32,000 nt of DNA, taken from contig CP075337.1 of the NCBI GenBank assembly GCA_025349965.1, forward strand, positions 150,001 to 182,000, given 5' to 3'. The translations under genes and the position numbers were made by a program. Every line of letters starts with the position of its first letter. The first letter of the stretch is position 1. Under the pieces are notes generated by a model, which was not told the origin of the DNA, searched no databases, and saw only the letters and a list, made by a program, of their open reading frames with translations. The stretch comes from Candidatus Saccharimonadota bacterium. Lineage in GTDB: Bacteria > Patescibacteriota > Saccharimonadia > Saccharimonadales > Saccharimonadaceae. This document shows positions 21,072 to 32,000 of the stretch, in pieces.

Positions 21072-21149
21072 TGGGGCGAATGAAGGGAATCGAACCCTCG
21101 GCCTCCGGAACCACAACCCGGCGCTCTAACCAACTGAGCTACATCCGCC
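21072..21149 (-). tRNA. tRNA-His(GTG) with genome-encoded G-1 and CCA
   Basis: Reverse complement: G(-1) GCGGATG TA GCTC AGTTGGTTA GAGC G CCGGG TTGTGGT TCCGG ... GAGGG TTCGATT CCCTT CATTCGC C CCA. The anticodon is GTG, and G-1 lies opposite discriminator C73. Confidence 0.93.
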
Positions 21150-21253
21150 ATAGGCCTTAAGACGTAGTTTATTATAACAGATAGAGGGACGTTTTGGTAG
21201 AGGAGAAAACTCTTTATTATCTTGAGGTGGTGTTGTATAATAACACAGTACCT

Positions 21254-21328
21254 GCGGGCGTCGTATAATGGCTAATATACGTGCCTTCCAAGCATGTGAT
21301 GAGAGTTCGATTCTCTCCGCCCGCACCA
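21254..21328 (+). tRNA. tRNA-Gly(TCC), CCA encoded
   Basis: Acceptor GCGGGCG/CGCCCGC, anticodon arm CGTGC-CTTCCAA-GCATG, T arm GAGAG-TTCGATT-CTCTC, discriminator A, then CCA. Confidence 0.93.
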
Positions 21329-21340
21329 AGAACTTATATT

Positions 21341-21370
21341 AAAAGATGCTCTACTCTGGGCATCTTTTAT
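21341..21370 (+). terminator. rho-independent terminator after tRNA-Gly
   Basis: Stem aaaagatgctc (21341-21351) pairs with gggcatctttt (21058-type positions 21358-21368), followed by T residues. Confidence 0.75.
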
Positions 21371-21447
21371 ATATTGTAGGAGTTTATAAAAGCAATGGAG
21401 TCGGGTGTATACTGAGAAATAACTGCGAGCGCAAAGGGGACACTTGA

Positions 21448-21666
21448 ATGGACGTTGACACATACATTGATACATTTGATAAGGAAGTGCGGGAACGCTT
21501 GACGCAGATGCGGAAGCTTGTGCGACAAGAGGCCCCTGATGCAGTAGAATCATTTACTTATGCCTTGTTGGGTACAAGCTAAACAGAAAACAACTGGTGT
21601 ACTTTGGTGGATTTAATTAAGAAAGTTATTTCGTACCGTAAAGGACAGCTGGGCATAGTCGAGTAA
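21448..21666 (+). pseudogene. decayed remnant of a DUF1801 (YdhG-like) domain gene
   Basis: Frame 1 reads MDVDTYIDTFDKEVRERLTQMRKLVRQEAPDAVESFTYA and stops at TAA 21580. The family-typical YKLNRKQLVYFGGF is in frame 0 (21573-21617). The C-terminal-like LIKKVISYRKGQLGIVE* is back in frame 1. Total length is about 72 codons versus about 115-130 for intact family members. Confidence 0.6.
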
Positions 21667-21691
21667 TCAAGGATGCGCAGCGTAAGTACTG

Positions 21692-22018
21692 TTATTTCTT
21701 CTCGCCCTTTTTAATTTGCTTCTCTTCGCGTTTCTTGTTTGTATCTGCGCCGGGCAGAGCCTCTATGAGCTCGTCAAGCTTGTCCTGGATAGCCTGAGTG
21801 TCGGCATTCTGAGAGCTTTGCACTACGAAGAGCAAGAAGAAGGTCGATACAAAGATGCAAAGGTCCATAATATCAAACCATGTCTGGTATTCAATAAATA
21901 ATCCTGCAATAAACCAGGCGAGGATGACGAGAAATACTACTGCAAATATCTTTGGATTGCCAATAAAATCAGCAAGTTTGTTCATGAACTTGGTAAGGTT
22001 TTTTTCCATCTTTTTCAT
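21692..22018 (-). CDS. low-affinity iron permease family protein (Fet4-like small membrane protein)
   Basis: MKKMEKNLTKFMNKLADFIGNP..., two TMs, then VVQSSQNADTQAIQDKLDELI, which is typical of the family. Start chosen at ATG 22018, 6 nt after -10 TACAAT. The longer ORF-track version (to 22105) adds a non-homologous N-terminus. Confidence 0.8.
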   Translation of the reverse strand: MKKMEKNLTKFMNKLADFIGNPKIFAVVFLVILAWFIAGLFIEYQTWFDIMDLCIFVSTFFLLFVVQSSQNADTQAIQDKLDELIEALPGADTNKKREEKQIKKGEKK

Positions 22019-22024
22019 ACTTCT

Positions 22025-22075
22025 ATTGTACACCTTTTGGTCGAGAGGTGGTGCGTAGTGGTGAGGGGGTATAAT
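22025..22075. promoter_or_regulatory. back-to-back divergent -10 boxes for two leaderless-type genes
   Basis: On the minus strand, TACAAT (complement of 22025-22030) is followed by 6 nt and then ATG 22018. On the plus strand, TATAAT (22070-22075) is followed by 6 nt and then ATG 22082. Confidence 0.5.
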
Positions 22076-22081
22076 GGACAT

Positions 22082-22528
22082 ATGGTACGTAAGCAAAAGA
22101 GTCACACGGCCGACGAGTTTAATCTTGATGTACTCTCAAGTGATATAGATTTATTTCGCTGGTTCTTGCTCTGTTATCTTTTTGGGAAACCGATTCGTTC
22201 GGAAAGTGCTGTGAAGACCTGGCGGTTGTTTATTGATAAGAAGCTAGATACGCCCTGGGCAATTATGGAAGTGTCGGAGCATCGCTTGGTGGGAGTGCTG
22301 CATGCTGGTGGGTATACGCGATATCAACACGTGACGGCACGGGGTTTAAAACTATGTATGGAGCGTCTCATTCGTGAATATGAGGGCTCTCTTTTTCTAA
22401 TGCTTGAATATAGCCAAGACGAAGATGATTTTTCTAAGCGATTGCAGAAGTTATATGGTGTTGGAAAGAAGGTGGCGGAGATTTTTATGCGCGAGACGGA
22501 GGAGGCGTTTGCGCGTCGAATTGAGTAG
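22082..22528 (+). CDS. hypothetical protein with helix-hairpin-helix-like C-terminal motif (possible HhH-GPD-related fold; function uncertain)
   Basis: 148 aa from ATG 22082. LQKLYGVGKKVAEIFMRE resembles an HhH GVG motif. The all-helical pattern resembles endonuclease III/AGOG-like proteins, but no catalytic Asp could be assigned. Confidence 0.5.
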   Translation: MVRKQKSHTADEFNLDVLSSDIDLFRWFLLCYLFGKPIRSESAVKTWRLFIDKKLDTPWAIMEVSEHRLVGVLHAGGYTRYQHVTARGLKLCMERLIREYEGSLFLMLEYSQDEDDFSKRLQKLYGVGKKVAEIFMRETEEAFARRIE

Positions 22529-22582
22529 GCTGCTGTGATGCTGTTATACTAAGAGTACAGATCGTTAAGCGAAAGGAGGCGT

Positions 22583-23479
22583 ATGCCGAGTAAATCAATT
22601 AACGAATTACAAGATCCACGCGGGCAATATCCCGAGATGGATATTCCGCCGCAGCGGCAATCTGAGCCCGGGCTCGATAGCGCCTTAGAGCCATTGGCAG
22701 ATCACGGACTGGCTACATACACAGGGAGCGGACGCCTTAAGGGGCGTAAAGCCCTTATTACGGGTGGCGATAGCGGTATTGGCAGGGCTGTGGCCATTGC
22801 TTTCGCTCGTGAAGGTGCAGATGTCGCGATTAGTTATCTACCTGTAGAGCAGACGGATGCGGAAGATGTGAAGGCAGCTATTGAGGCAAGTGGCCAGCAA
22901 GCGGTTCTTATACCCGGAGACCTTACAAGTGAGGACTTCGCACGCAGTCTTCCGAAGCGGGCGGCCGAAACGCTTGGCGGACTTGATATTTTAGTAAATA
23001 ATGCAGGTAAGCAGATGTATAACGATGATTTCGCCACCATCCCTACTAAGCAGATTATCGATACATTTACCGTTAATGTCTTTGCGATGATGTGGATTAC
23101 ACAAGAAGCGCTTGCGTATCTTCCTCCGGGGTCCGCTATTATCAATACGACATCCATCCAGGCGGCGCAGCCATCCCCCGGACTACTTGACTATGCTGCA
23201 ACAAAAGCTGCAATCTTGAATTTTAGCCGAGGACTGGCGCAACAACTTACACCAAAGGGTATTAGGGTGAATGCCGTTTCACCGGGACCAATCTGGACAC
23301 CGCTACAGCCAAGTTATGGGCAGTCTAAGGACAAACTCACGAAGTTCGGTAAAGATACACCGCTTGGACGCGCGGGACAACCCGCCGAACTCGCATCTAC
23401 TTACGTGTTTCTTGCAAGCCCTGAAGCGAGTTATATTTCTGGAGAGGACATTGCCGTAACTGGAGGTAAGCTACTATAA
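22583..23479 (+). CDS. SDR family oxidoreductase (YghA/YdaD general-stress-protein-39-like)
   Basis: 298 aa with [33 protein letters not shown], the YAATKAA catalytic YxxxK, and a strong AAAGGAGG SD. Confidence 0.9.
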
Positions 23480-23506
23480 CAGGCAGATAAAGAGTCTGGT
23501 TAAACG

Positions 23507-24073
23507 TTAAACCACAGGACTGGGGTTACGACGGAAACAGCTTGCTATATGGTCATTTACAAGGCCAGCAGATTGCATATACGCATAGATGATTGTCGGG
23601 CCAACAAAAGTAAAGCCACGCTTCTTTAAGTCTTTGGAAATTGTTTCGGCAAGAGCGGTTTTTGCGGGTACTTCATCCATGGTACTCCAATTGTTCACGA
23701 TGGGCGTATTCTCAACAAATTCCCAAAGGTATGCGTTAAAGCTGCCAAATTCTTCTTGAACTTTCAAGAAAGCCTGAGCATTCTTGGTGGCGGATGCTAT
23801 TTTGAGCCGATTGCGGATGATTCCAGGATTCTGAAGCAGTTCTGCGTGCTTCGCGGTGCCGTAGGATGCAACTGTCTTAATATCAAAATTATCAAAAGCC
23901 TTACGGTAATTCCCGCGCTTTGCTAGTACTGTGTCCCAACTTAAGCCTGCCTGCGCTCCCTCGAGGGTGAGCAGCTCAAACAGCGCCTGGTCGTCATGCA
24001 GAGGAACACCCCATTCGGCATCATGATACTGAATAGAGAGATCATTTTTTGCCCAGCTACAGCGATATTTCAT
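23507..24073 (-). CDS. tag: DNA-3-methyladenine glycosylase I
   Basis: 188 aa with RCSWAKNDLSIQYHDAEWGVP, FELLTLEGAQAGLSW and an HIASCF zinc-site region. Confidence 0.92.
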   Translation of the reverse strand: MKYRCSWAKNDLSIQYHDAEWGVPLHDDQALFELLTLEGAQAGLSWDTVLAKRGNYRKAFDNFDIKTVASYGTAKHAELLQNPGIIRNRLKIASATKNAQAFLKVQEEFGSFNAYLWEFVENTPIVNNWSTMDEVPAKTALAETISKDLKKRGFTFVGPTIIYAYMQSAGLVNDHIASCFRRNPSPVV

Positions 24074-24102
24074 GAACCTTATTGTACGCTAAAAACACAG
24101 AC

Positions 24103-24576
24103 TTAGTTAAGCGTCGCAACTCCGACAGTGAGATAGGTTGCAAAACCAACCCATGCGAGATACGGGACAAGTAGCCAGAACGCTAAATCCGAATGTTTTT
24201 TAAACTCAATCATTGTCCATATAATGCTTGCGATAAGCCCAATGATTATAATAACGCCGAGCCATGGAAGATGCAGGGTGAAGAACGCGACTGACCACAA
24301 TACATTCAGAATAAGTTGTGTAAAGAAGGCGATATAGACAACACCAGCTTGCTTTTTCTTAGCAATCCATACAAGAAAAAGGGCAATTCCCATGAAAACA
24401 TATAAAATACTCCACACTGGTCCGAATGCTTCGTTTGGTGGAAGGAGTGGGGGTTTGGCAAGCTCTGCATACCAGGTAGGGATATTAGGAGTTGTTGCGA
24501 GTGACCCAAGTGCGCCTGCACCCATTGCGACGACAAGTGACGCGACAAGTTGAGTAATTCTTTTCCAAATTTTCAT
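24103..24576 (-). CDS. tspO: TspO/MBR family tryptophan-rich sensory protein
   Basis: 157 aa with 5 TMs and the motifs WYAELAKPPLLPPNEAFGPVWSILYVFMG and LVPYLAWVGFATYL. An AAGGAG SD is present. Confidence 0.9.
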   Translation of the reverse strand: MKIWKRITQLVASLVVAMGAGALGSLATTPNIPTWYAELAKPPLLPPNEAFGPVWSILYVFMGIALFLVWIAKKKQAGVVYIAFFTQLILNVLWSVAFFTLHLPWLGVIIIIGLIASIIWTMIEFKKHSDLAFWLLVPYLAWVGFATYLTVGVATLN

Positions 24577-24622
24577 GACATAAACTCCTTATAAAAATAC
24601 CCCTCCGGAGAGGGATAAAATT

Positions 24623-25030
24623 TTAGTGATCGTGTTCCGCGGCTTCCGCTTCTTCTTTGGTGAGGTGAATTGTGCCATGCGCATGCTCTGCTGGTGCGTA
24701 GATTGAGTAAAGTTTTAGTGGCTGATCGCCGGTGTTTACTACATTGTGCCACTTTCCAGCGGGAACAAAGATTGCGTAATCATCTTCAGCATCCCAGCTA
24801 TCAAGTGTTGCTTCGCTGTCGCCCATAAGTACCGTAGCAAGCCCTTGCTCAATCCGTAGGAACTGATCGTGGTCTTCGTGCACCTCGAGACCAATATCAT
24901 CACCCGGCTGAATGGTCATAAGTGTCATTTGCATGTTTGCGCCCGTCCATGCGGCGGTGCGGAAGTTTTCGTTTTCAAGTGTTAGTTCTTCAATATTAAC
25001 AACGTATGGATTTGGTCCGTGATCTTGCAT
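24623..25030 (-). CDS. cupin domain-containing protein
   Basis: 135 aa. The cupin motifs are GLEVHEDHDQFLRIEQG...FVPAGKWHNVVN. A GGAGG SD is present. Confidence 0.85.
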   Translation of the reverse strand: MQDHGPNPYVVNIEELTLENENFRTAAWTGANMQMTLMTIQPGDDIGLEVHEDHDQFLRIEQGLATVLMGDSEATLDSWDAEDDYAIFVPAGKWHNVVNTGDQPLKLYSIYAPAEHAHGTIHLTKEEAEAAEHDH

Positions 25031-25107
25031 AATGCCTCCTCTATTTCTCTTACTAGTATAGCTTAGGCGTAGTGGATGGTAAATCTTTGCTATAATAACG
25101 GTGGTAC

Positions 25108-25184
25108 GCCCCGGTAGCTCAGTTGGATAGAGCAGAGGACTTCTAAGCCTAAGGTCGCTGGTTCGAGCCCAGCCCGGGGTACCA
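25108..25184 (+). tRNA. tRNA-Arg(TCT), CCA encoded, with non-canonical acceptor and anticodon-stem pairs
   Basis: GCCCCGG TA GCTC AGTTGGATA GAGC A GAGGA CTTCTAA GCCTA AGGTC GCTGG TTCGAGC CCAGC CCGGGGT A CCA. G1-U72 is a wobble pair. The anticodon stem has only 3 Watson-Crick pairs, flanked by G27/A43 and A31/G39. Confidence 0.85.
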
Positions 25185-25206
25185 TTTGATATATACGAAA
25201 AATTTC

Positions 25207-25557
25207 CTAAAGTGCTTTGTAGTATTTCGCGCCTTCAAGCTGCGCTTTTACAATTCTACCTACTCCAGAGGGTACGATGACCACTTCGGGCTGTAGCATA
25301 TTGGCGGTAATTCCAAATAAATTCATTGCATTTCGACAAACCGAGAAGACCACACCTTCTTCGGAGAATTGAGTAATAGATTCTTCATAGGGACTTCCTT
25401 GTTGTACGAAGCTAATTGCTTTTCCGTAAACAGCCACCTCGATAGCAAGGGGCTGTCCCGCGAGGTCGTCAATGAGGTTGCGTAGGTGGGTCAGGAGTCG
25501 TTCTGCACTTTCTATCCCATCTCGCTCGAAGTCGATAATAAGTTTAGCTGTGTTCAT
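25207..25557 (-). CDS. DsrE/DsrF-like family protein (small alpha/beta protein, function unknown)
   Basis: 116 aa. The pattern IEVAVYGKAI...VVFSVCRNAMNLFGI...VVIVPSGVGRIVKAQLEGAKYYK resembles DsrE-related proteins. -10 TATAAT lies 6 nt from the ATG. Confidence 0.6.
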   Translation of the reverse strand: MNTAKLIIDFERDGIESAERLLTHLRNLIDDLAGQPLAIEVAVYGKAISFVQQGSPYEESITQFSEEGVVFSVCRNAMNLFGITANMLQPEVVIVPSGVGRIVKAQLEGAKYYKAL

Positions 25558-25582: not shown

Positions 25583-25646
25583 GTTATGCATAAGCGCCCT
25601 TATGCAATGTTTCGATTTTCCTGTATAATAAGTAAGTTATGCATAA
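25583..25646. promoter_or_regulatory. repeated palindromic motif GTTATGCATAA (two perfect copies plus one degenerate): candidate operator set in a divergent promoter region
   Basis: gttatgcataa occurs at 25583-25593 and again at 25636-25646, where it overlaps the MFS start codon. ttatgcaAtg occurs at 25600-25609. The core TTATGCATAA is a perfect 10-bp palindrome. Confidence 0.45.
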
Positions 25647-27225
25647 ATTATTCTCTAAAAACCAGAAAAAGAAGGTCGATGCGCCGAAGAAGCCTGTTGA
25701 TCTTGACGGGATAGACCCGAAAAGCTACAAGCGTCGTTGGTGGACACTTGCGGCAATGTGTTTGGCGCTTCTTGGTGTCATGCTCGCAAATAGTAGCCTT
25801 AATATTGCGTTGCCGAAGATGTCAATTGATCTCGGCCTTACGCAACTTGATTTCACTTGGATTGTGAACGTCTACACACTTGTATTCGCCAGCCTCTTAT
25901 TTGTAGCCGGCGCCTTTGGTGACCGTTATGGTCGCAAACTTGCGATGCAAATTGGTATGGTGATCTTTGCTGTTGGTTCTGTGTATGCAGCGCTTATTGC
26001 TCAGAATGCAACCGAGCTGATTATTGCTCGTATTGTGATGGGATTCGGCGGTGCGCTTGTGATGCCAACCACGCTTTCTATTATTAATAACACCTTCCCT
26101 AAGAGCGAACGCGCTCGCGCGGTGGCAATTTGGAGTGCTATTGCTGGTATCGGTATGATGGTAGGTTCTATCATCAGTGGGTTCCTTCTTGAGCACTTTA
26201 CGTGGCACTCGCTCTTCTACTTCAGTGCTGCAATTGCAGTCATTGGCTTCTTCGCGAACCACTTCCTTGCAAGTGAGTCTAAGGACGAGAAAGAATCTCC
26301 AATTGACTGGCTCGGTGGACTCTTCTCTGCAGTTGGTATCTTCGGTCTCGTGTATGGTATTACCGAAGCGCCATCAAAAGGTCTTACTGAAGCACTTGTT
26401 CTTACCTCGCTTATCGTTGGTGTTGTAAGCCTCGTTGCTTTTGTTTTCTGGGAGATTCGCGCAAAATCACCAATGCTTGATATGAAGCTCTTCAAGAACC
26501 GTCCGTTCTGGGTTTCAAGCCTTACGCTAACGCTTACATTCTTGGCAATGTCGGGCGTGTTCTTCTCAATGGGTCTATTGATTCAGCTCATTCTTGGTAT
26601 GTCTGCGCTTGAGTCCTCGTTCGCGATGTTGCCAATTATGATCCCAATGATGTTTATCGGTCCGTTCATTCCTATGGTGGTGAAGAAGTTTGGTGCGCGC
26701 GTGACCATCTCAGTTGGGTTGCTTGTGACGGCAATTGCTTTTGCGATTATGTCGACATGGACAGCTGAAATGACCTATTGGAATCTTCTTATTGTGATGT
26801 GGATCATGATGATTGGTATTTCAGCGGCTATGACACCGGGTACAAACATCCTCATGTCAGCCGTACCACGTAACCGCTCTGGTATGGGTTCTGCAATGAA
26901 CGATACAACTCGTGAACTTGGTGGCGCGCTTGGTGTGGCAATTCTTGGCGCAGTTCTTAGCGCTGCGTATGCTGCAAACGTACATGAGGCGGCCTCAAAG
27001 CTACCAGCGGAAGCTGCGGAGGCGGTTGAAGGCTCTCTTGCTGCTGCAATTGCTGTTTCTCAAAAGATTGGCGCGGCGGCCGAACCACTTCTTAACGCAG
27101 CAAAAGAAGCGTGGATGTCTGCGCTTGGCACAGCTTCACTTACTGCGGCGGGAATTATCTTCGCAGCTTCAGTGATTGCATTTATCGCACTTCCTAAGCA
27201 CAAGAAAGATAGTGACACGCTGTAA
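25639..27225 (+). CDS. MFS transporter, DHA2 (EmrB/QacA-like, 14-TM) drug:H+ antiporter family
   Basis: 528 aa with about 14 hydrophobic segments, motif A-like GAFGDRYGRK and motif C-like region. TGTATAAT lies 9 nt upstream of the ATG. Confidence 0.9.
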   Translation: MHKLFSKNQKKKVDAPKKPVDLDGIDPKSYKRRWWTLAAMCLALLGVMLANSSLNIALPKMSIDLGLTQLDFTWIVNVYTLVFASLLFVAGAFGDRYGRKLAMQIGMVIFAVGSVYAALIAQNATELIIARIVMGFGGALVMPTTLSIINNTFPKSERARAVAIWSAIAGIGMMVGSIISGFLLEHFTWHSLFYFSAAIAVIGFFANHFLASESKDEKESPIDWLGGLFSAVGIFGLVYGITEAPSKGLTEALVLTSLIVGVVSLVAFVFWEIRAKSPMLDMKLFKNRPFWVSSLTLTLTFLAMSGVFFSMGLLIQLILGMSALESSFAMLPIMIPMMFIGPFIPMVVKKFGARVTISVGLLVTAIAFAIMSTWTAEMTYWNLLIVMWIMMIGISAAMTPGTNILMSAVPRNRSGMGSAMNDTTRELGGALGVAILGAVLSAAYAANVHEAASKLPAEAAEAVEGSLAAAIAVSQKIGAAAEPLLNAAKEAWMSALGTASLTAAGIIFAASVIAFIALPKHKKDSDTL

Positions 27226-27238
27226 TAAAAGTTTGCAT

Positions 27239-27271
27239 AAAAAATACCCTCACAGCTGAGGGTATTTTTTA
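27239..27271. terminator. bidirectional rho-independent terminator between convergent genes
   Basis: A 13-bp stem aaaaataccctca/tgagggtattttt with loop cagc. An A-run and a T-run flank the two sides. Confidence 0.85.
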
Positions 27272-27279
27272 TGTGCGAG

Positions 27280-28812
27280 CTACTCTGTAATGTCTTTAAT
27301 GACACTAATCTTCGCGCCGAGTTTATTAAGACGATTCGCAAGATCTTCGTAGCCACGGTTAATGACGTAGATGTTCCGGAGTGTGGAAATACCAGGGGCT
27401 GCAATCATCGCAAGGAGCACAACCACTCCTGGGCGTAGTGCGGGCGGGGTGACAATCTCAGCTGGCTTCCACTTTGTAGGACCTTCAATATATACACGGT
27501 GCGGATCAACCATCTCAACCTTTGCGTTAAGTTTGGTGAGCTCCGTAAGATAGATGGCGCGGTTTTCATAGACCCAGTCATGGATGAGCGTCCTGCCTTT
27601 CGCCGTAGCTGCAATGAGCGCGAAGAAGGGGAGGTTGTCGATGTTAAGCCCTGGGAATGGGAGTGGATGAATCTTATCAGTAGACGCCTTGAGGCTGCTT
27701 TGCTTTGTAGTAATGTCTACAAGGCGAGTGTGGCCGTTGTGCGCGGCGTATTCTTCCGATAATTCATATACAAAGCCCATATTCTCGAGGACTTGAAGCT
27801 CAATTTCAAGAAATTCAATTGGTGCGCGCTTGATGGTGATTTCGGATTTTGTGACAATCGCTGCTGCAATAAAGCTCATTGCTTCAATTGGGTCTTCTGA
27901 AGGATAGTATTCGACATCAACGTTGATATCTCGCTTACCGGTTACGGTAAGTGTTGTTGTACCGATGCCATCAATCTTCACGCCAAGCTTTTCGAGGTAG
28001 AAGCAGAGGTCTTGCACCATGTAATTTGGGCTTGCGTTACGGATAATTGTTGTACCGTCATTTAGTGCGGCGGCCATAAGGATATTCTCGGTCACGGTGT
28101 CTCCGCGCTCGGAAAGGACAATCGCACGGGTCGGTTTCTTTTCCGCGACAGACGCAATGTAGCTGTCGGATGTTGTGTTTACTTCAAGACCAAATACTTT
28201 CAGGCCATCAAGGTGCGGCTCAACGGTGCGTTCACCAAGGCTGCAACCGCCAGCGAATGGGATATTGAAGCTACGATATTGGTGAAGGAGTGGGCCAAGG
28301 AACATAATAATGCTGCGCGTACGCTTAGCGGCGTTTACATCCATTTTCTCAAGCTTGAGGCGTGCAGGCGGTGTGATTTCAAGATTATTATCACCAAACC
28401 AGCGAGTCTTCACGCCAATACTATTGAGGACTTCGATGAGACGGTTTACTTCTTCTATGCGCGCGACATGCTTTAGGGTAGTTGTGCCACGGTTAAGGAG
28501 TGACGCGCAGAGGAGTGCTACTGCCGCATTTTTACTTGTCTTAGTGGTGATTTCGCCACTAAGCTTGTGACCGCCTTCGATGCGGAGATTAATAGATCCT
28601 GGTTGATTCAGGCTTACGATTTGACTTGAAAGTACGTCGCTTATTCGGGCGAGCATATCAAGGCTGATATTTTGACCACCTTTTTCAATACGATTAATGG
28701 CACTTTGACTTGTTCCAAGCTCTTTCGCAAGCTCTGCCTGTGTCATGCCTCGTGATTGACGAGTTTCTTGAATAAGGGTTCCGATTTTCTCAGCGTAATT
28801 TCGTGTTTCCAT
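27280..28812 (-). CDS. murA: fusion protein: N-terminal XRE-family helix-turn-helix domain + UDP-N-acetylglucosamine 1-carboxyvinyltransferase (MurA)
   Basis: 510 aa. Residues 1-70 read IQETRQSRGMTQAELAKELGTSQSAINRIEKGGQNISLDMLARISDVL (XRE HTH). The remainder is full-length MurA with a conserved Lys (TSKNAA), catalytic Cys-Arg loop (FAGGCSLGERTVEPH), Asp (LNIDNLPFF) and C-terminal Arg (PPALRPG). Confidence 0.88.
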   Translation of the reverse strand: METRNYAEKIGTLIQETRQSRGMTQAELAKELGTSQSAINRIEKGGQNISLDMLARISDVLSSQIVSLNQPGSINLRIEGGHKLSGEITTKTSKNAAVALLCASLLNRGTTTLKHVARIEEVNRLIEVLNSIGVKTRWFGDNNLEITPPARLKLEKMDVNAAKRTRSIIMFLGPLLHQYRSFNIPFAGGCSLGERTVEPHLDGLKVFGLEVNTTSDSYIASVAEKKPTRAIVLSERGDTVTENILMAAALNDGTTIIRNASPNYMVQDLCFYLEKLGVKIDGIGTTTLTVTGKRDINVDVEYYPSEDPIEAMSFIAAAIVTKSEITIKRAPIEFLEIELQVLENMGFVYELSEEYAAHNGHTRLVDITTKQSSLKASTDKIHPLPFPGLNIDNLPFFALIAATAKGRTLIHDWVYENRAIYLTELTKLNAKVEMVDPHRVYIEGPTKWKPAEIVTPPALRPGVVVLLAMIAAPGISTLRNIYVINRGYEDLANRLNKLGAKISVIKDITE

Positions 28813-28820
28813 ATTTCTTA

Positions 28821-28844
28821 TGATATATCATCCGTGATATATAA
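28821..28844. promoter_or_regulatory. perfect palindrome TGATATATCA plus adjacent near-repeat TGATATATAA, 9 nt upstream of the HTH::murA start
   Basis: tgatatatca at 28821-28830 is self-complementary. tgatatataa at 28835-28844 lies 14 nt away, start to start. Both are in the 102-bp divergent murA/glyA intergenic region. Confidence 0.4.
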
Positions 28845-28914
28845 GCAAGAATACGTCTACGCTTTCTCCTTTGGAAAACTCATATATAATAGAGGTAAAG
28901 AGGACGTATAAACT

Positions 28915-30135
28915 ATGATGTATAAACACTTTGTCGTAAAAGACGATACTGAAGTTGATGAACTTATAAAAGCCGAAGCGAAGCGCCAGGCTGAAGATAT
29001 CCAATTAATCCCAAGTGAAAATTATGTGAGCGACGATGTGCGCGCCGCTTTGGCGAGCCCATTTACAAACCGTTACTCAGAAGGATACCCGGGTAAGCGC
29101 TACTATGGCGGACAGAAATACACTGACCAGCTTGAGCAGCTGGCGATAGACCGTGCTAAGAAGCTTTTTAGGGCGGATCACGCTAATGTGCAGCCACATT
29201 CTGGCGCTCCAGCTAACGAAGCCGTCTACAGTGCTTGGCTCGAGCCAGGTGATACTGTTTTGGCGATGGATCTGTCACATGGTGGACACCTTACGCACGG
29301 TGCGCCCGTTACACGTAGTGCACGGCTTTATAATTTTGTGCGTTATGGTGTTAAAGACCTCGAAACAGCTGAAATCGACTATGATGAACTACGTAGACTC
29401 GCACTTGAACACAAACCAAAGCTTATCATTGCAGGCTTTAGCGCCTACCCGGGTGAGCTTGATTACGAAAAATTTGCCGAGATTGGCAACGAAGTTGGCG
29501 CGCTTCTGATGGCCGACATGGCGCATATTGCAGGCCTTATTGCCGGTGGCGTTGCAAAGAACCCACTCGATTATGGCTTCCATGTCATGACTACGACGAC
29601 TCACAAGACACTGCGCGGTCCCCGTGGTGGACTTATCTTGACCAAGGGGATGGTCTCTAATCCACTCAAGACGGTAGAGAAAACAATTGAGAATATTCCA
29701 ACCCTGATTGACCGGACGGTATTTCCAGGGATGCAGGGTGGTCCACATATGAATACAATTGCTGCAAAGGCGGTTGCATTTCATGAGGCGCTTCAGCCGG
29801 AGTTTGCTGACTATGCGAAGCAGGTTGTGGAGAATGCGCGCGCGCTTACGGAAGAACTCCAAAAGGGCGGTCTGAAGCTTATTGGCGGCGGAACGAAAAA
29901 CCACCTTATCTTGGCAGATGTATATGGAAGCTTTGGGATTGATGGAAAAGAAGCTCAGGAGTGGCTTGAGAAAGAGGGCATTATTGTGAATGCCAATTCA
30001 ATCCCGGATGATACGTTGCCACCTTTTAGGCCAAGCGGGATACGGTTGGGGACACCGGCGATGACGACACGAGGTGCGACTGTTGACGATATGATAGCGA
30101 TTGCTCGTAAGGTCATCGAAGTATTAAGAGGGTAG
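28915..30135 (+). CDS. glyA: serine hydroxymethyltransferase
   Basis: 406 aa with LIPSENYVS, GYPGKRYYGG and the PLP-lysine motif TTTTHKTLRGPRGG. Confidence 0.97.
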   Translation: MMYKHFVVKDDTEVDELIKAEAKRQAEDIQLIPSENYVSDDVRAALASPFTNRYSEGYPGKRYYGGQKYTDQLEQLAIDRAKKLFRADHANVQPHSGAPANEAVYSAWLEPGDTVLAMDLSHGGHLTHGAPVTRSARLYNFVRYGVKDLETAEIDYDELRRLALEHKPKLIIAGFSAYPGELDYEKFAEIGNEVGALLMADMAHIAGLIAGGVAKNPLDYGFHVMTTTTHKTLRGPRGGLILTKGMVSNPLKTVEKTIENIPTLIDRTVFPGMQGGPHMNTIAAKAVAFHEALQPEFADYAKQVVENARALTEELQKGGLKLIGGGTKNHLILADVYGSFGIDGKEAQEWLEKEGIIVNANSIPDDTLPPFRPSGIRLGTPAMTTRGATVDDMIAIARKVIEVLRG

Positions 30136-30210: not shown

Positions 30211-30714
30211 TTAGCTTGCCTGTCCGGCCATGTTTGCACAACTTGAGCCTGGAGTACCAACACTAATGGTCGTAAGACCTGCATTTGGAGATTTGTCGTA
30301 CTGCCAGTAGCTAATTATTACGCCACCAGTTGAAGCGTCGTCAGAAGCTGCTGTTGAAGATTTTCCGCAAGCCTGAAGGTTAATGCGCTTTGTCCCGTTG
30401 TCCTTAGTAACAACAGTCGCTGGAACGCCTGTTATTGTTGAGCTGTTGTCAATGTAGTAAGCCTTTGATGTATCAGTACCAAAGCTTGCGATTGCATATG
30501 GGTAGCTACCAGTTTCAGCTTGGAAAAGCTCAATCTTCTTCTTCCATGTATTCGCAAGTGAAAGTGACGCTGAAGCGTTAGCCCTGTTTGTAATACCGTT
30601 GTAAGAAACAATCGTGATCGCAGCAAGGATAGCGATAACGACAACAACGATGAGAAGTTCTACGATAGTGAAACCGCGCTTCGCTGTATTTAGTTTGATG
30701 TCTGCAAGACTCAT
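30211..30714 (-). CDS. type IV pilin-like protein (prepilin N-terminal cleavage/methylation domain)
   Basis: MSLADIKLNTAKRG|FTIVELLIVVVVIAILAAITIVSYNG is a class III signal peptide with G-1/F+1/E+5. A C-terminal Cys pair is present. It has its own -10 TATAAT (complement of 30742-30747) and a GGGGG SD. Confidence 0.9.
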   Translation of the reverse strand: MSLADIKLNTAKRGFTIVELLIVVVVIAILAAITIVSYNGITNRANASASLSLANTWKKKIELFQAETGSYPYAIASFGTDTSKAYYIDNSSTITGVPATVVTKDNGTKRINLQACGKSSTAASDDASTGGVIISYWQYDKSPNAGLTTISVGTPGSSCANMAGQAS

Positions 30715-30813: not shown

Positions 30814-32000
30814 CTATGACTCGGGTATAAAGGAGATGCCGTCGAGAGAGACCCAGGTGTTCGATGCGCCGTGCGCGGTAATTTGGCCGTCTGCCCATAC
30901 GTCAAGTCGGCTATGTGCGCCCGCTGCAGGTGTCTGCATAAGGAGGCGTTCGGCTGGACGGTACCCAGGGGGAAGTGTAGCAATGGCGGCGCCAAGTGTG
31001 CCAGAGGCAACGAGACCTTTTAGGTGGACAACGCCGTCACTTGTCTTTGTGTACTGTGGCGTAGTAAACCCTGAGCCGCTATAGTTTGCCCAGCCATTTG
31101 AGAGGGGAAGGTTTATCCAGCCCGAATAAGACCCGGGAAGGTAAGCTACGTTAATAGAGTAAGCACCCGTTCCATCCCCCTTGGCAAGAAGGCCCTGAGT
31201 GGCATCAATGCCAAGATGGTGGAAGGTTCCTGAGCGTGATGGGAAGTGCATGTATTGAGAAGGTCGTGACGCTGCAGGGATGCTGAAGATTACAGTGCCA
31301 TTTGTTCGCGTTCCATTGGCGAGAAGCCCTTGTATGACAACTCGTCCAGCACTATCTTTCACATATGATGCAGGCGCCCAAGCCCCACCGTAGTTAGTGA
31401 AGCCATTTAGTAGTGTCGGTGTCGTTCTTGTATATGGCGCTGACTTTGCCGTGTAGCGAATGGAGTCGAGTGAATACCAGGCCGTATTACCGCCATCCAT
31501 GAAGACAATTTTTCCATCCTCCCAGAGGTCGACGCGTGAACTTGCATTTGAGTTAGTGGTATTTCCAAAGAAAAGTCTTCCGGTTGGTTGGTATTTTGCT
31601 GGAAGTTGGGCGATGGTGCTGCCTTGTGCAGCTGCCGATGCTTTTATCATCCCTTTGATAACTACGAACCCAGCAGAAGTCATCGAATACATAGCTGGAG
31701 AATAATTAGAAGAGTAGCGCGTCCAAGTGCCTTCTAGCGGTAGTGGTGACCAGAGTGGTATGCGTGTATCCTTTGTTGCATATGTTGAAGATCCTGTATT
31801 ATTTCGTGCAATTACACGGACCGACACAGTATCATTATTAATTGCTTCAGTAAGCTTGTAGGATGTGGCTGTAAGATTTGTGGCTGCTGATTGCCATGCA
31901 CCGCCATTAAGGCGATAATCCACGTCGTATACAGAGGCGTAGGATGCGCTTTGCCACGATATATCGACATCACTTCCATCAACGACTGCCATCGTAATAG
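30814..32000 (-). CDS. secreted/surface-type protein: FN3-like domain followed by three tandem ~100-aa beta-rich repeats (partial; 5' end probably outside the window)
   Basis: The frame is open to the window edge. The N-terminal VDISWQSASYASVYDVDYRLNGGAWQSAATNLTATSYKLT...VSVRVIARNNTGSS resembles FN3. Three repeats then share G(W/F)xNY...Y.K.S.G.V.IkG...I..LP..YRP...R(L/V)D.W.DG.I...W.SLDgI. The gene ends at TAG 30814-30816. Confidence 0.75.
   Translation of the reverse strand, partial: ITMAVVDGSDVDISWQSASYASVYDVDYRLNGGAWQSAATNLTATSYKLTEAINNDTVSVRVIARNNTGSSTYATKDTRIPLWSPLPLEGTWTRYSSNYSPAMYSMTSAGFVVIKGMIKASAAAQGSTIAQLPAKYQPTGRLFFGNTTNSNASSRVDLWEDGKIVFMDGGNTAWYSLDSIRYTAKSAPYTRTTPTLLNGFTNYGGAWAPASYVKDSAGRVVIQGLLANGTRTNGTVIFSIPAASRPSQYMHFPSRSGTFHHLGIDATQGLLAKGDGTGAYSINVAYLPGSYSGWINLPLSNGWANYSGSGFTTPQYTKTSDGVVHLKGLVASGTLGAAIATLPPGYRPAERLLMQTPAAGAHSRLDVWADGQITAHGASNTWVSLDGISFIPES
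30817..31743 (-). repeat. three tandem protein-level domain repeats (about 31417-31743, 31111-31416, 30817-31110)
   Basis: Manual alignment of aa 84-192, 193-294 and 295-392 of the ORF. The similarity is conserved at the protein level and diverged at the DNA level. Confidence 0.7.

Follow-up and report, generated by a model that had tools for sequence, protein, structure and literature searches.

A helix-turn-helix domain fused to MurA in Saccharibacteria and a predicted operator at its promoter

The fusion gene, its domains and its distribution

The window analysed here is the whole stretch of 32,000 nucleotides at positions 150,001 to 182,000 (forward strand) of the 780,698-bp contig CP075337.1 from a Candidatus Saccharimonadota bacterium (GenBank assembly GCA_025349965.1). 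It contains on the reverse strand a gene encoding a single polypeptide in which a helix-turn-helix (HTH) domain of the XRE/Cro-C1 type is followed by a flexible linker and a MurA domain, the latter corresponding to uridine diphosphate N-acetylglucosamine (UDP-GlcNAc) 1-carboxyvinyltransferase. A palindrome that is a predicted operator for the HTH lies directly upstream of the fusion gene. The features of the locus are compiled in Table 1.

Table 1. Coordinates of the fusion gene, its domains and the features around it, numbered from the first nucleotide of the window.
Feature	Position	Strand	Basis or detail
HTH-MurA fusion open reading frame	27280..28812	-	510 amino acids; ATG 28812-28810, TAG 27282-27280
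XRE/Cro-C1-type HTH, residues 4-61	28630..28803	-	HTH_3 match and helices of the AlphaFold2 model
Flexible linker, residues 62-75	28588..28629	-	AlphaFold2 predicted local distance difference test (pLDDT) <50 at residues 66-72
MurA domain (UDP-GlcNAc 1-carboxyvinyltransferase, EC 2.5.1.7), residues 76-506	27295..28587	-	NF006873, PDB and Foldseek matches
Predicted operator, 18-bp palindrome TATATCA-N4-TGATATA	28824..28841	.	TATATCATCCGTGATATA on the plus strand, TATATCACGGATGATATA on the gene strand
Candidate -35 element, TTGCTT	28843..28848	-	read from the sequence
Candidate -10 element, TATCAT	28820..28825	-	17-nt spacer; overlap with the right half-site of the operator; 7 nt between its end and the ATG
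glyA (serine hydroxymethyltransferase), divergent neighbour	28915..30135	+	Pfam SHMT, E=3e-149
Hairpin between A and T runs	27236..27273	.	RNA fold -23.4 kcal/mol, z=-7.2

The list of open reading frames places the HTH, the linker and the full MurA domain in one uninterrupted frame. An in-frame TGA lies six codons upstream of the ATG, which is the first start after that stop, and the N-terminus is thereby fixed. In-frame ATG, GTG or TTG codons occur at codons 1, 23 and 53 and next at codon 134; none was found in a scan of the junction (approximately residues 62-78), nor anywhere between codons 54 and 133. Since the next start is only at codon 134, a separate MurA start is impossible without loss of the active-site Lys and Asn.

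The Pfam profile HTH_3 (PF01381) matched residues 14-61 with an E value of 6.4e-15 and 55.4 bits against a cutoff of 23, by which the protein is assigned to the XRE-family HTH proteins. Helices of the HTH in the AlphaFold2 model span residues 4-20, 25-32, 36-43 and 51-61, and the recognition helix is probably contained within TSQSAINRIEKG. Sixteen of the 48 family-wide invariant columns fell in residues 10-48, in an alignment that includes members of only 33-38% identity. Conservation of the HTH was equal to that of the enzyme (0.81 versus 0.80 among 80 fusion proteins), and the linker was the least conserved segment among the Saccharibacteria fusions. The AlphaFold2 model, computed from a 24-row alignment, had a pLDDT of 86.8 and a predicted template modelling score of 0.80, with the MurA fold confident, the linker of low confidence and the HTH without confident docking onto the enzyme. 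Searched with Foldseek, the model gave target-normalised TM-scores of ∼0.9 against ∼40 MurA structures, none of which (411-438 amino acids) carries an HTH.

The Pfam profile EPSP_synthase (PF00275) matched residues 79-494 (E=2e-50), and with the NCBIfam MurA subfamily model NF006873 the protein scored 339.5 bits, above the cutoff of 297. Among PDB sequences, the MurA structure 5u4h matched best (E=2.9e-53), with NikO and AroA far lower. The active site was aligned to E. coli MurA as a reference of 419 amino acids, a length that agrees, as does the aligned range, with the match to 1uae. By this alignment, K22, N23, R91, C115 and R120 of E. coli correspond to K94, N95, R166, C190 and R195, and D305, R331, R371 and R397 correspond to D392, R418, R460 and R486. 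All nine equivalents were invariant in the 22 Saccharibacteria and 58 Actinomycetota fusions analysed.

An earlier note on this DNA, made from the sequence alone, had described an XRE-type HTH joined in a single frame to a complete and apparently active MurA, with no separate murA start near the junction. Each of these statements was upheld by the domain searches, in which both domains scored well above threshold, by the positions of the start codons and by the invariant residues, and all peptide strings that the note quoted were found in the protein. Its reservation that the N-terminal segment might not score as an HTH was removed by the HTH_3 match. Its assignments of the K22, C115/R120 and D305 equivalents were correct; the Arg of PPALRPG, which it had equated with R397, is the R371 equivalent, and the R397 equivalent sits in the motif INRGYED.

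The same architecture is widespread. More than 120 protein clusters carry it, and when each GTDB species was represented by a single genome, at least 598 of these genomes had a relative of the fusion; the best 80 of the loci were analysed further. The best 120 homologue clusters (82-100% identity) all encode proteins of 497-513 amino acids with both Pfam domains, and the named members among them are Candidatus Saccharibacteria or Saccharimonadota. All fusions at the best 80 loci are uninterrupted; ∼22 of these loci are from Saccharibacteria (67-82% identity). Unexpectedly, the other ∼58 belong to Actinomycetota, with 64-69% identity along the entire protein, HTH included (L018-L080, for example L054 5992-7521, L070, L025 and L034). 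The carriers include Streptomyces (among them S. rimosus), Kitasatospora, Nocardioides, Aeromicrobium, Knoellia, Terrabacter, Brachybacterium, Intrasporangiaceae and others, and the architecture recurs in a Nonomuraea cluster of 246 members. The survey of distribution that the earlier note had proposed thus places the fusion in Saccharibacteria and many Actinomycetota. No conserved operon partner was found in the Actinomycetota loci, where the gene contexts vary. Identity of the fusion with the Streptomyces gene called murA2 was ruled out, the cloning primer for S. venezuelae murA2 (vnz_28735) encoding MPTPTAS and not the fusion N-terminus.

The complete genome of the cultivated Saccharibacterium Southlakia epibionticum ML1 provides a proxy for the role of the gene in the cell. 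SEML1_0687 is the only entry described as a carboxyvinyltransferase in the gene table (PMC10633639, Tables S1/S2); it is 1524 bp long, has PF01381 at 14-65 and PF00275 at 79-494, is divergent from the serine hydroxymethyltransferase gene and lies in a tRNA neighbourhood (PMC10633639). SEML1_0687 was essential at all three time points of transposon insertion sequencing, the insertions falling from 48 in the input DNA to 1, 1 and 0 (PMC10633639). The text of that 2023 Cell paper makes no mention of MurA, and both Pfam domains appear in its supplement (PMC10633639). By proxy of this sole and essential copy, the window fusion is predicted to be the housekeeping MurA of the cell, in agreement with the activity predicted from its catalytic residues.

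A neighbour-joining tree of the MurA domain was computed with 100 bootstraps and with low-GC relatives lacking taxonomic labels as outgroups. The Actinomycetota sequences were monophyletic in 100 of 100 replicates, and the group formed by Actinomycetota and Saccharibacteria in 99 of 100; low-GC relatives, both fused and unfused, fell outside that group. The Saccharibacteria sequences were monophyletic in 65 replicates, and the Actinomycetota were nested within them in 34. Actinomycetota are the host phylum of Saccharibacteria. Since the copies of the two phyla are each other's closest relatives (99/100), inter-phylum transfer is suggested, and the sequence data point to one gene exchange between epibiont and host phylum.

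Predicted operator and promoter

When the 130 nt upstream of all fusion genes were aligned, a palindrome emerged that in the window is the sole perfect match to TATATCA-N4-TGATATA; three sites with at most two mismatches occur in the window versus 0.21 expected by chance. The predicted operator ends 11 nt before the ATG of the fusion gene and fills the spacer between the candidate -35 and -10 elements. The earlier note had suggested the interval 28813-28914 as a putative DNA target of the HTH, and the palindrome narrows this to 18 bp. A second operator inside the HTH-coding region (28654-28671, two mismatches) was considered and rejected, as it is probably a by-product of coding for the conserved peptide N-I-S-L-D-M that synonymous changes destroy in most lineages. 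The third site with at most two mismatches in the window is also imperfect.

The palindrome travels with the gene. The form TATA(T/C)CA-N4-TG(A/G)TATA was present with at most two mismatches at 22 of 22 Saccharibacteria loci and the form TATCTCA-N4-TGAGATA with at most three mismatches at 57 of 58 Actinomycetota loci; together with four distant lineages, it occupies the promoter at 83 loci. It is retained across GC contents of 0.35-0.52 in Saccharibacteria and 0.60-0.75 in Actinomycetota with one base changed per half-site. In nearly all loci 8-12 nt separate its end from the start codon, and the flanking DNA is unconserved. Within the ∼0.95 Mb of loci, only seven other sites had at most one mismatch, five of them 8 nt upstream of murB. 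Among the 222 genes in the Saccharibacteria loci, upstream matches with at most one mismatch were confined to the fusion gene, to murB and to glyA, which is divergent and has its site in common with the fusion gene. The autoregulation proposed in the earlier note thus receives strong comparative support, since three or more lineages have a conserved 18-bp palindrome in the promoter of the gene itself.

The arrangement of the promoter is consistent with such a role. A TTG followed by three further nucleotides and then 1-3 nt precedes the palindrome in most, though not all, Saccharibacteria loci and in L081, and the Actinomycetota have an equivalent of the -10 element, TANNNT (for example TACGGT), 6-7 nt before the start codon. 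The layout TTGNNN-operator-TANNNT-(6-8 nt)-start recurs in other loci. No Shine-Dalgarno sequence was found before the ATG of the fusion gene. Since the candidate -10 element ends 7 nt before the ATG and no Shine-Dalgarno sequence precedes it, the mRNA is probably leaderless. The overlap of the operator with the -10 element suggests an operator of the repressor type.

Another conserved palindrome, TTGTTCGCATAGTAGTAGAACAA, was noticed ∼60-110 nt upstream of the fusion gene in the Streptomyces loci L050, L053, L054, L062, L063, L075 and L080. It lies in the intergenic region common to a divergent gene of ∼330 amino acids (family F10) and is presumably the operator of another regulator.

A second perfect copy of the operator, TATATCATGAGTGATATA, is located 8 nt upstream of a gene in five loci of one Saccharibacteria clade: L009 (485-502), L010, L011, L013 and L015. 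The downstream gene was identified as murB (NF000755, E=9e-103); murB lies outside the window.

A search of representatives of 50%-identity clusters revealed full-length distant fusions at 33-44% identity. Seven of these lack the equivalents of R91, the Cys loop, R120 and other residues, and the HTH is kept. The operator is also kept, just before the start codon or the operon, in four of four distant relatives whose loci were fetched (33-38% identity). Two of the distant fusions, P0136 and P0150, which are followed by ddl and/or a Mur ligase gene, are divergent from a standalone murA-murB pair; the standalone murA retains K22, N23, R91, C115, R120, D305 and R397. A third, P0151, is the last gene of an operon that also contains NUDIX and nucleotidyl-transferase genes and bears two operators. 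Since the catalytically dead members keep both the HTH and the operator beside murA-murB, the family would have a regulatory role tied to peptidoglycan-precursor genes; as predicted from these sequences, it spans bifunctional enzyme-regulators and dedicated pseudoenzyme regulators of such genes. In two metagenomic contigs of low GC content (0.32-0.34), L081 (5558-11082) and L084 (2714-8001), a dead HTH-MurA-like gene, followed by ddl and/or a Mur ligase gene, is divergent from murA-murB with the operator in the intergenic region between them, a layout that looks like subfunctionalisation into an enzyme and a pseudoenzyme regulator.

Proposed function and alternatives

The reading that we regard as likely is that the fusion protein is both the housekeeping MurA and, through the HTH and its predicted operator, a repressor of its own promoter. 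The C-terminal 430 residues would catalyze the first committed step in making peptidoglycan, and the N-terminal XRE HTH would bind TATATCA-N4-TGATATA, presumably as a dimer that would sit on one face of the DNA since the half-site centres are 11 bp apart. Bound over the -10 element and the spacer between it and the -35 element, the HTH would exclude RNA polymerase, and the concentration of MurA protein would therefore set murA transcription by negative autoregulation. The same operator before murB in some Saccharibacteria would extend this control to the second step of the pathway. DNA binding and repression by the fusion protein are what we infer from the comparative evidence.

As a weaker proposal, the ligand state of the MurA domain may modulate DNA binding, in the way that BirA responds to biotinyl-AMP. 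Candidates for the ligand are UDP-GlcNAc or phosphoenolpyruvate (PEP), by which the open-to-closed change is driven, and UDP-N-acetylmuramic acid (UDP-MurNAc), with which the "dormant" complex is formed. Ligand control is suggested by analogy with BirA, PutA and NadR. The fullest version, which we put forward tentatively, would have occupancy of the active site by UDP-GlcNAc, PEP or UDP-MurNAc alter dimerisation of the HTH, so that precursor flux sets transcription of murA and, in some lineages, murB; it would also include one exchange of the gene between Saccharibacteria and Actinomycetota and a division into enzyme and pseudoenzyme regulator in other candidate-phyla lineages.

Several observations weigh against the enzyme-repressor reading or parts of it. 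The MurA domain scored 319.7 bits with the equivalog TIGR01072, below the cutoff of 392.7, and since NF006873 was passed and this cutoff was missed, the domain is regarded as a divergent MurA. E. coli D369 is replaced by Pro457, and each of the 80 fusion proteins has either Pro or Ser there. The motif PPALRP is common to the closest unfused relatives, and the replacement is a feature of the clade. The D369N variant of E. coli MurA retains activity, and the replacement is for that reason not disqualifying. The missed cutoff together with the loss of D369 nevertheless means that the kinetics may differ from those of a textbook MurA. The promoter elements were read from the sequence, and a consensus promoter scanner did not call the fusion promoter. 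MurA enzymes are generally monomers, which is a difficulty for the presumed dimer on the palindrome. Only 5 of the 11 loci with murB within reach have the operator before that gene; the other 6 do not. Finally, the pseudoenzymes have lost most of the residues that contact UDP-GlcNAc and PEP, so ligand sensing would not be obligatory for the family, and the MurA fold may be only an oligomerisation scaffold.

These last points bear on a simpler form of autorepression that is quite possible, in which the HTH reports only the concentration of the protein, the ligand state has no effect on DNA binding and the fold supplies catalysis and perhaps oligomerisation. The position of the operator fits plain negative autoregulation, the pseudoenzyme relatives are without ligand residues yet retain the HTH and the operator, and the model predicts a flexible linker with no confident docking of the HTH. 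The flexibility of the linker and the loss of ligand residues in the pseudoenzymes therefore leave room for a model in which concentration is the sole signal. However, the full two-domain MurA fold is kept even in dead paralogues beside murA-murB, which suggests that the fold serves regulation, and the established enzyme-repressor fusions BirA, PutA and NadR are controlled by ligands.

It is improbable that the palindrome is bound by another regulator or is a mere promoter element, with the HTH serving protein-protein contacts, localisation or stability. In its favour, binding of the site by the fusion protein rests on sequence comparison, a further point against the enzyme-repressor reading, and where intergenic DNA is AT-rich, a palindrome of similar composition can overlap sequence resembling a -10 element. 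However, the site accompanies the fusion gene in Saccharibacteria, Actinomycetota and other low-GC lineages with its position kept, it is essentially absent from other promoters of the same loci, and nothing in the family is more invariant than the portion of the HTH that reads DNA. The alternative raised in the earlier note, that the HTH was co-opted for protein interaction, is not needed.

Still harder to credit is that the C-terminal domain is not the housekeeping MurA but a NikO-like enolpyruvyl transferase or an inactive sensor, in which case another gene would encode the real MurA. The TIGR01072 score, the loss of D369 and the inactive paralogues in the family speak for it; all other catalytic residues are invariant, however, NikO and AroA are much poorer matches than MurA structures, and the complete genome of a relative has the fusion as its only, and essential, family member. 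By its fold, catalytic residues, subfamily score and the essential sole copy of that relative, the domain is thus predicted to be a divergent MurA. An artefact in which a frameshift or missed stop joins two genes is negligible in view of the same uninterrupted reading frame in hundreds of independent assemblies and of the absence of a separate murA start at the junction.

The known systems functionally closest to the proposed enzyme-repressor are those of the BirA type. BirA likewise has an N-terminal DNA-binding domain on a complete essential enzyme and represses a pathway promoter via an overlapping palindromic operator, and it is the model for a ligand-coupled logic in which an enzyme acts as regulator. 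BirA differs from the fusion in its winged helix, which takes the place of the XRE HTH, and in enzyme fold and pathway; its corepressor is known and is the intermediate of its own reaction. The gene predicted to be regulated by the fusion is that of the enzyme itself. In PutA (ribbon-helix-helix and proline dehydrogenase) and NadR (HTH and nicotinamide mononucleotide adenylyltransferase) one polypeptide also catalyzes a reaction and binds DNA, and the XRE-shikimate kinase fusions (PRK08154, a weak NCBIfam match) have an XRE N-terminal domain in common with the fusion. In contrast to the fusion, PutA, NadR and PRK08154 have no role in peptidoglycan synthesis and no EPSP-synthase/MurA fold, and homology is confined to the HTH. 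Regulators of the MocR/GabR and NagC/Mlc types reuse an enzyme fold as a sensor and parallel the dead HTH-MurA-like paralogues; their folds differ, and the window protein, which keeps nine catalytic residues, is predicted to be a working enzyme. The fusion is a member of neither the BirA-type nor the MocR/NagC families.

Canonical MurA and the fusion have the enzyme domain in common, and also the active-site residues, among them the Cys targeted by fosfomycin. Known controls of MurA are feedback by UDP-MurNAc through the "dormant complex" and, in Firmicutes, ClpCP/ReoM-dependent proteolysis, and are thus allosteric or proteolytic. Type II antitoxins of the XRE class (HipB, HigA, Y4mF) gave sub-threshold HTH matches (for example TIGR03070 with 51.7 bits against a cutoff of 71.65); they autorepress through palindromes, and their resemblance to the fusion is generic XRE similarity only. 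An antitoxin was ruled out since the neighbours are glyA and a transporter gene of the major facilitator superfamily (MFS), no toxin gene is present, a 430-residue enzyme is attached and all antitoxin models scored below cutoff. The combination predicted here, in which one polypeptide unites a DNA-binding domain with a catalytically competent enzyme and has an operator at its own and pathway promoters, is that of a trigger enzyme. Databases automatically annotate such proteins either as MurA or as "helix-turn-helix domain-containing protein", and a full-text literature search found no description of an HTH-MurA fusion, of its operator or of a DNA-binding MurA.

The proposal would be of consequence since MurA is the target of fosfomycin and the committed entry to cell-wall synthesis, and transcriptional control exerted by the enzyme is not among its known controls. 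Transcription factors are very few in Saccharibacteria and in other bacteria of the candidate phyla, where regulation has hardly been studied; in this case the regulator, its predicted operator and part of the regulon can be read directly from the sequence, with culturable carriers in Streptomyces, Nocardioides and S. epibionticum. Within the family, a natural series leads from the bifunctional enzyme-repressor to a standalone enzyme accompanied by a pseudoenzyme regulator, and it shows how an enzyme can become a transcription factor. An essential, leaderless promoter under operator control could also become a genetic tool for Patescibacteria, which are currently without inducible systems (PMC11665869).

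Neighbouring genes

The glyA gene and the fusion gene are divergent and have a common intergenic region of 102 bp, an order kept in most Saccharibacteria loci and in S. epibionticum. The hairpin beyond the 3' end of the fusion gene was identified by folding, the terminator scanner having made no call there, and none of 200 shuffled sequences was as stable. It is probably a bidirectional intrinsic terminator of the fusion gene and the convergent MFS-transporter gene (25639-27225).

On the other side of glyA, the reverse strand carries a type IV pilin-like gene with an N_methyl motif (30211-30714), which adjoins a 392-residue open reading frame without a Pfam match (30814-31992, also reverse strand). 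In most of the Saccharibacteria loci, glyA and the fusion gene are flanked by pilin genes (family F2). The region 21072-25557 contains the genes for tRNA-His, tRNA-Gly and tRNA-Arg together with small genes encoding a 3-methyladenine glycosylase, TspO/MBR, a cupin and a DsrE-like protein. With the exception of these small genes and the MFS transporter, the order of the tRNA genes, murA and glyA is that of S. epibionticum ML1.

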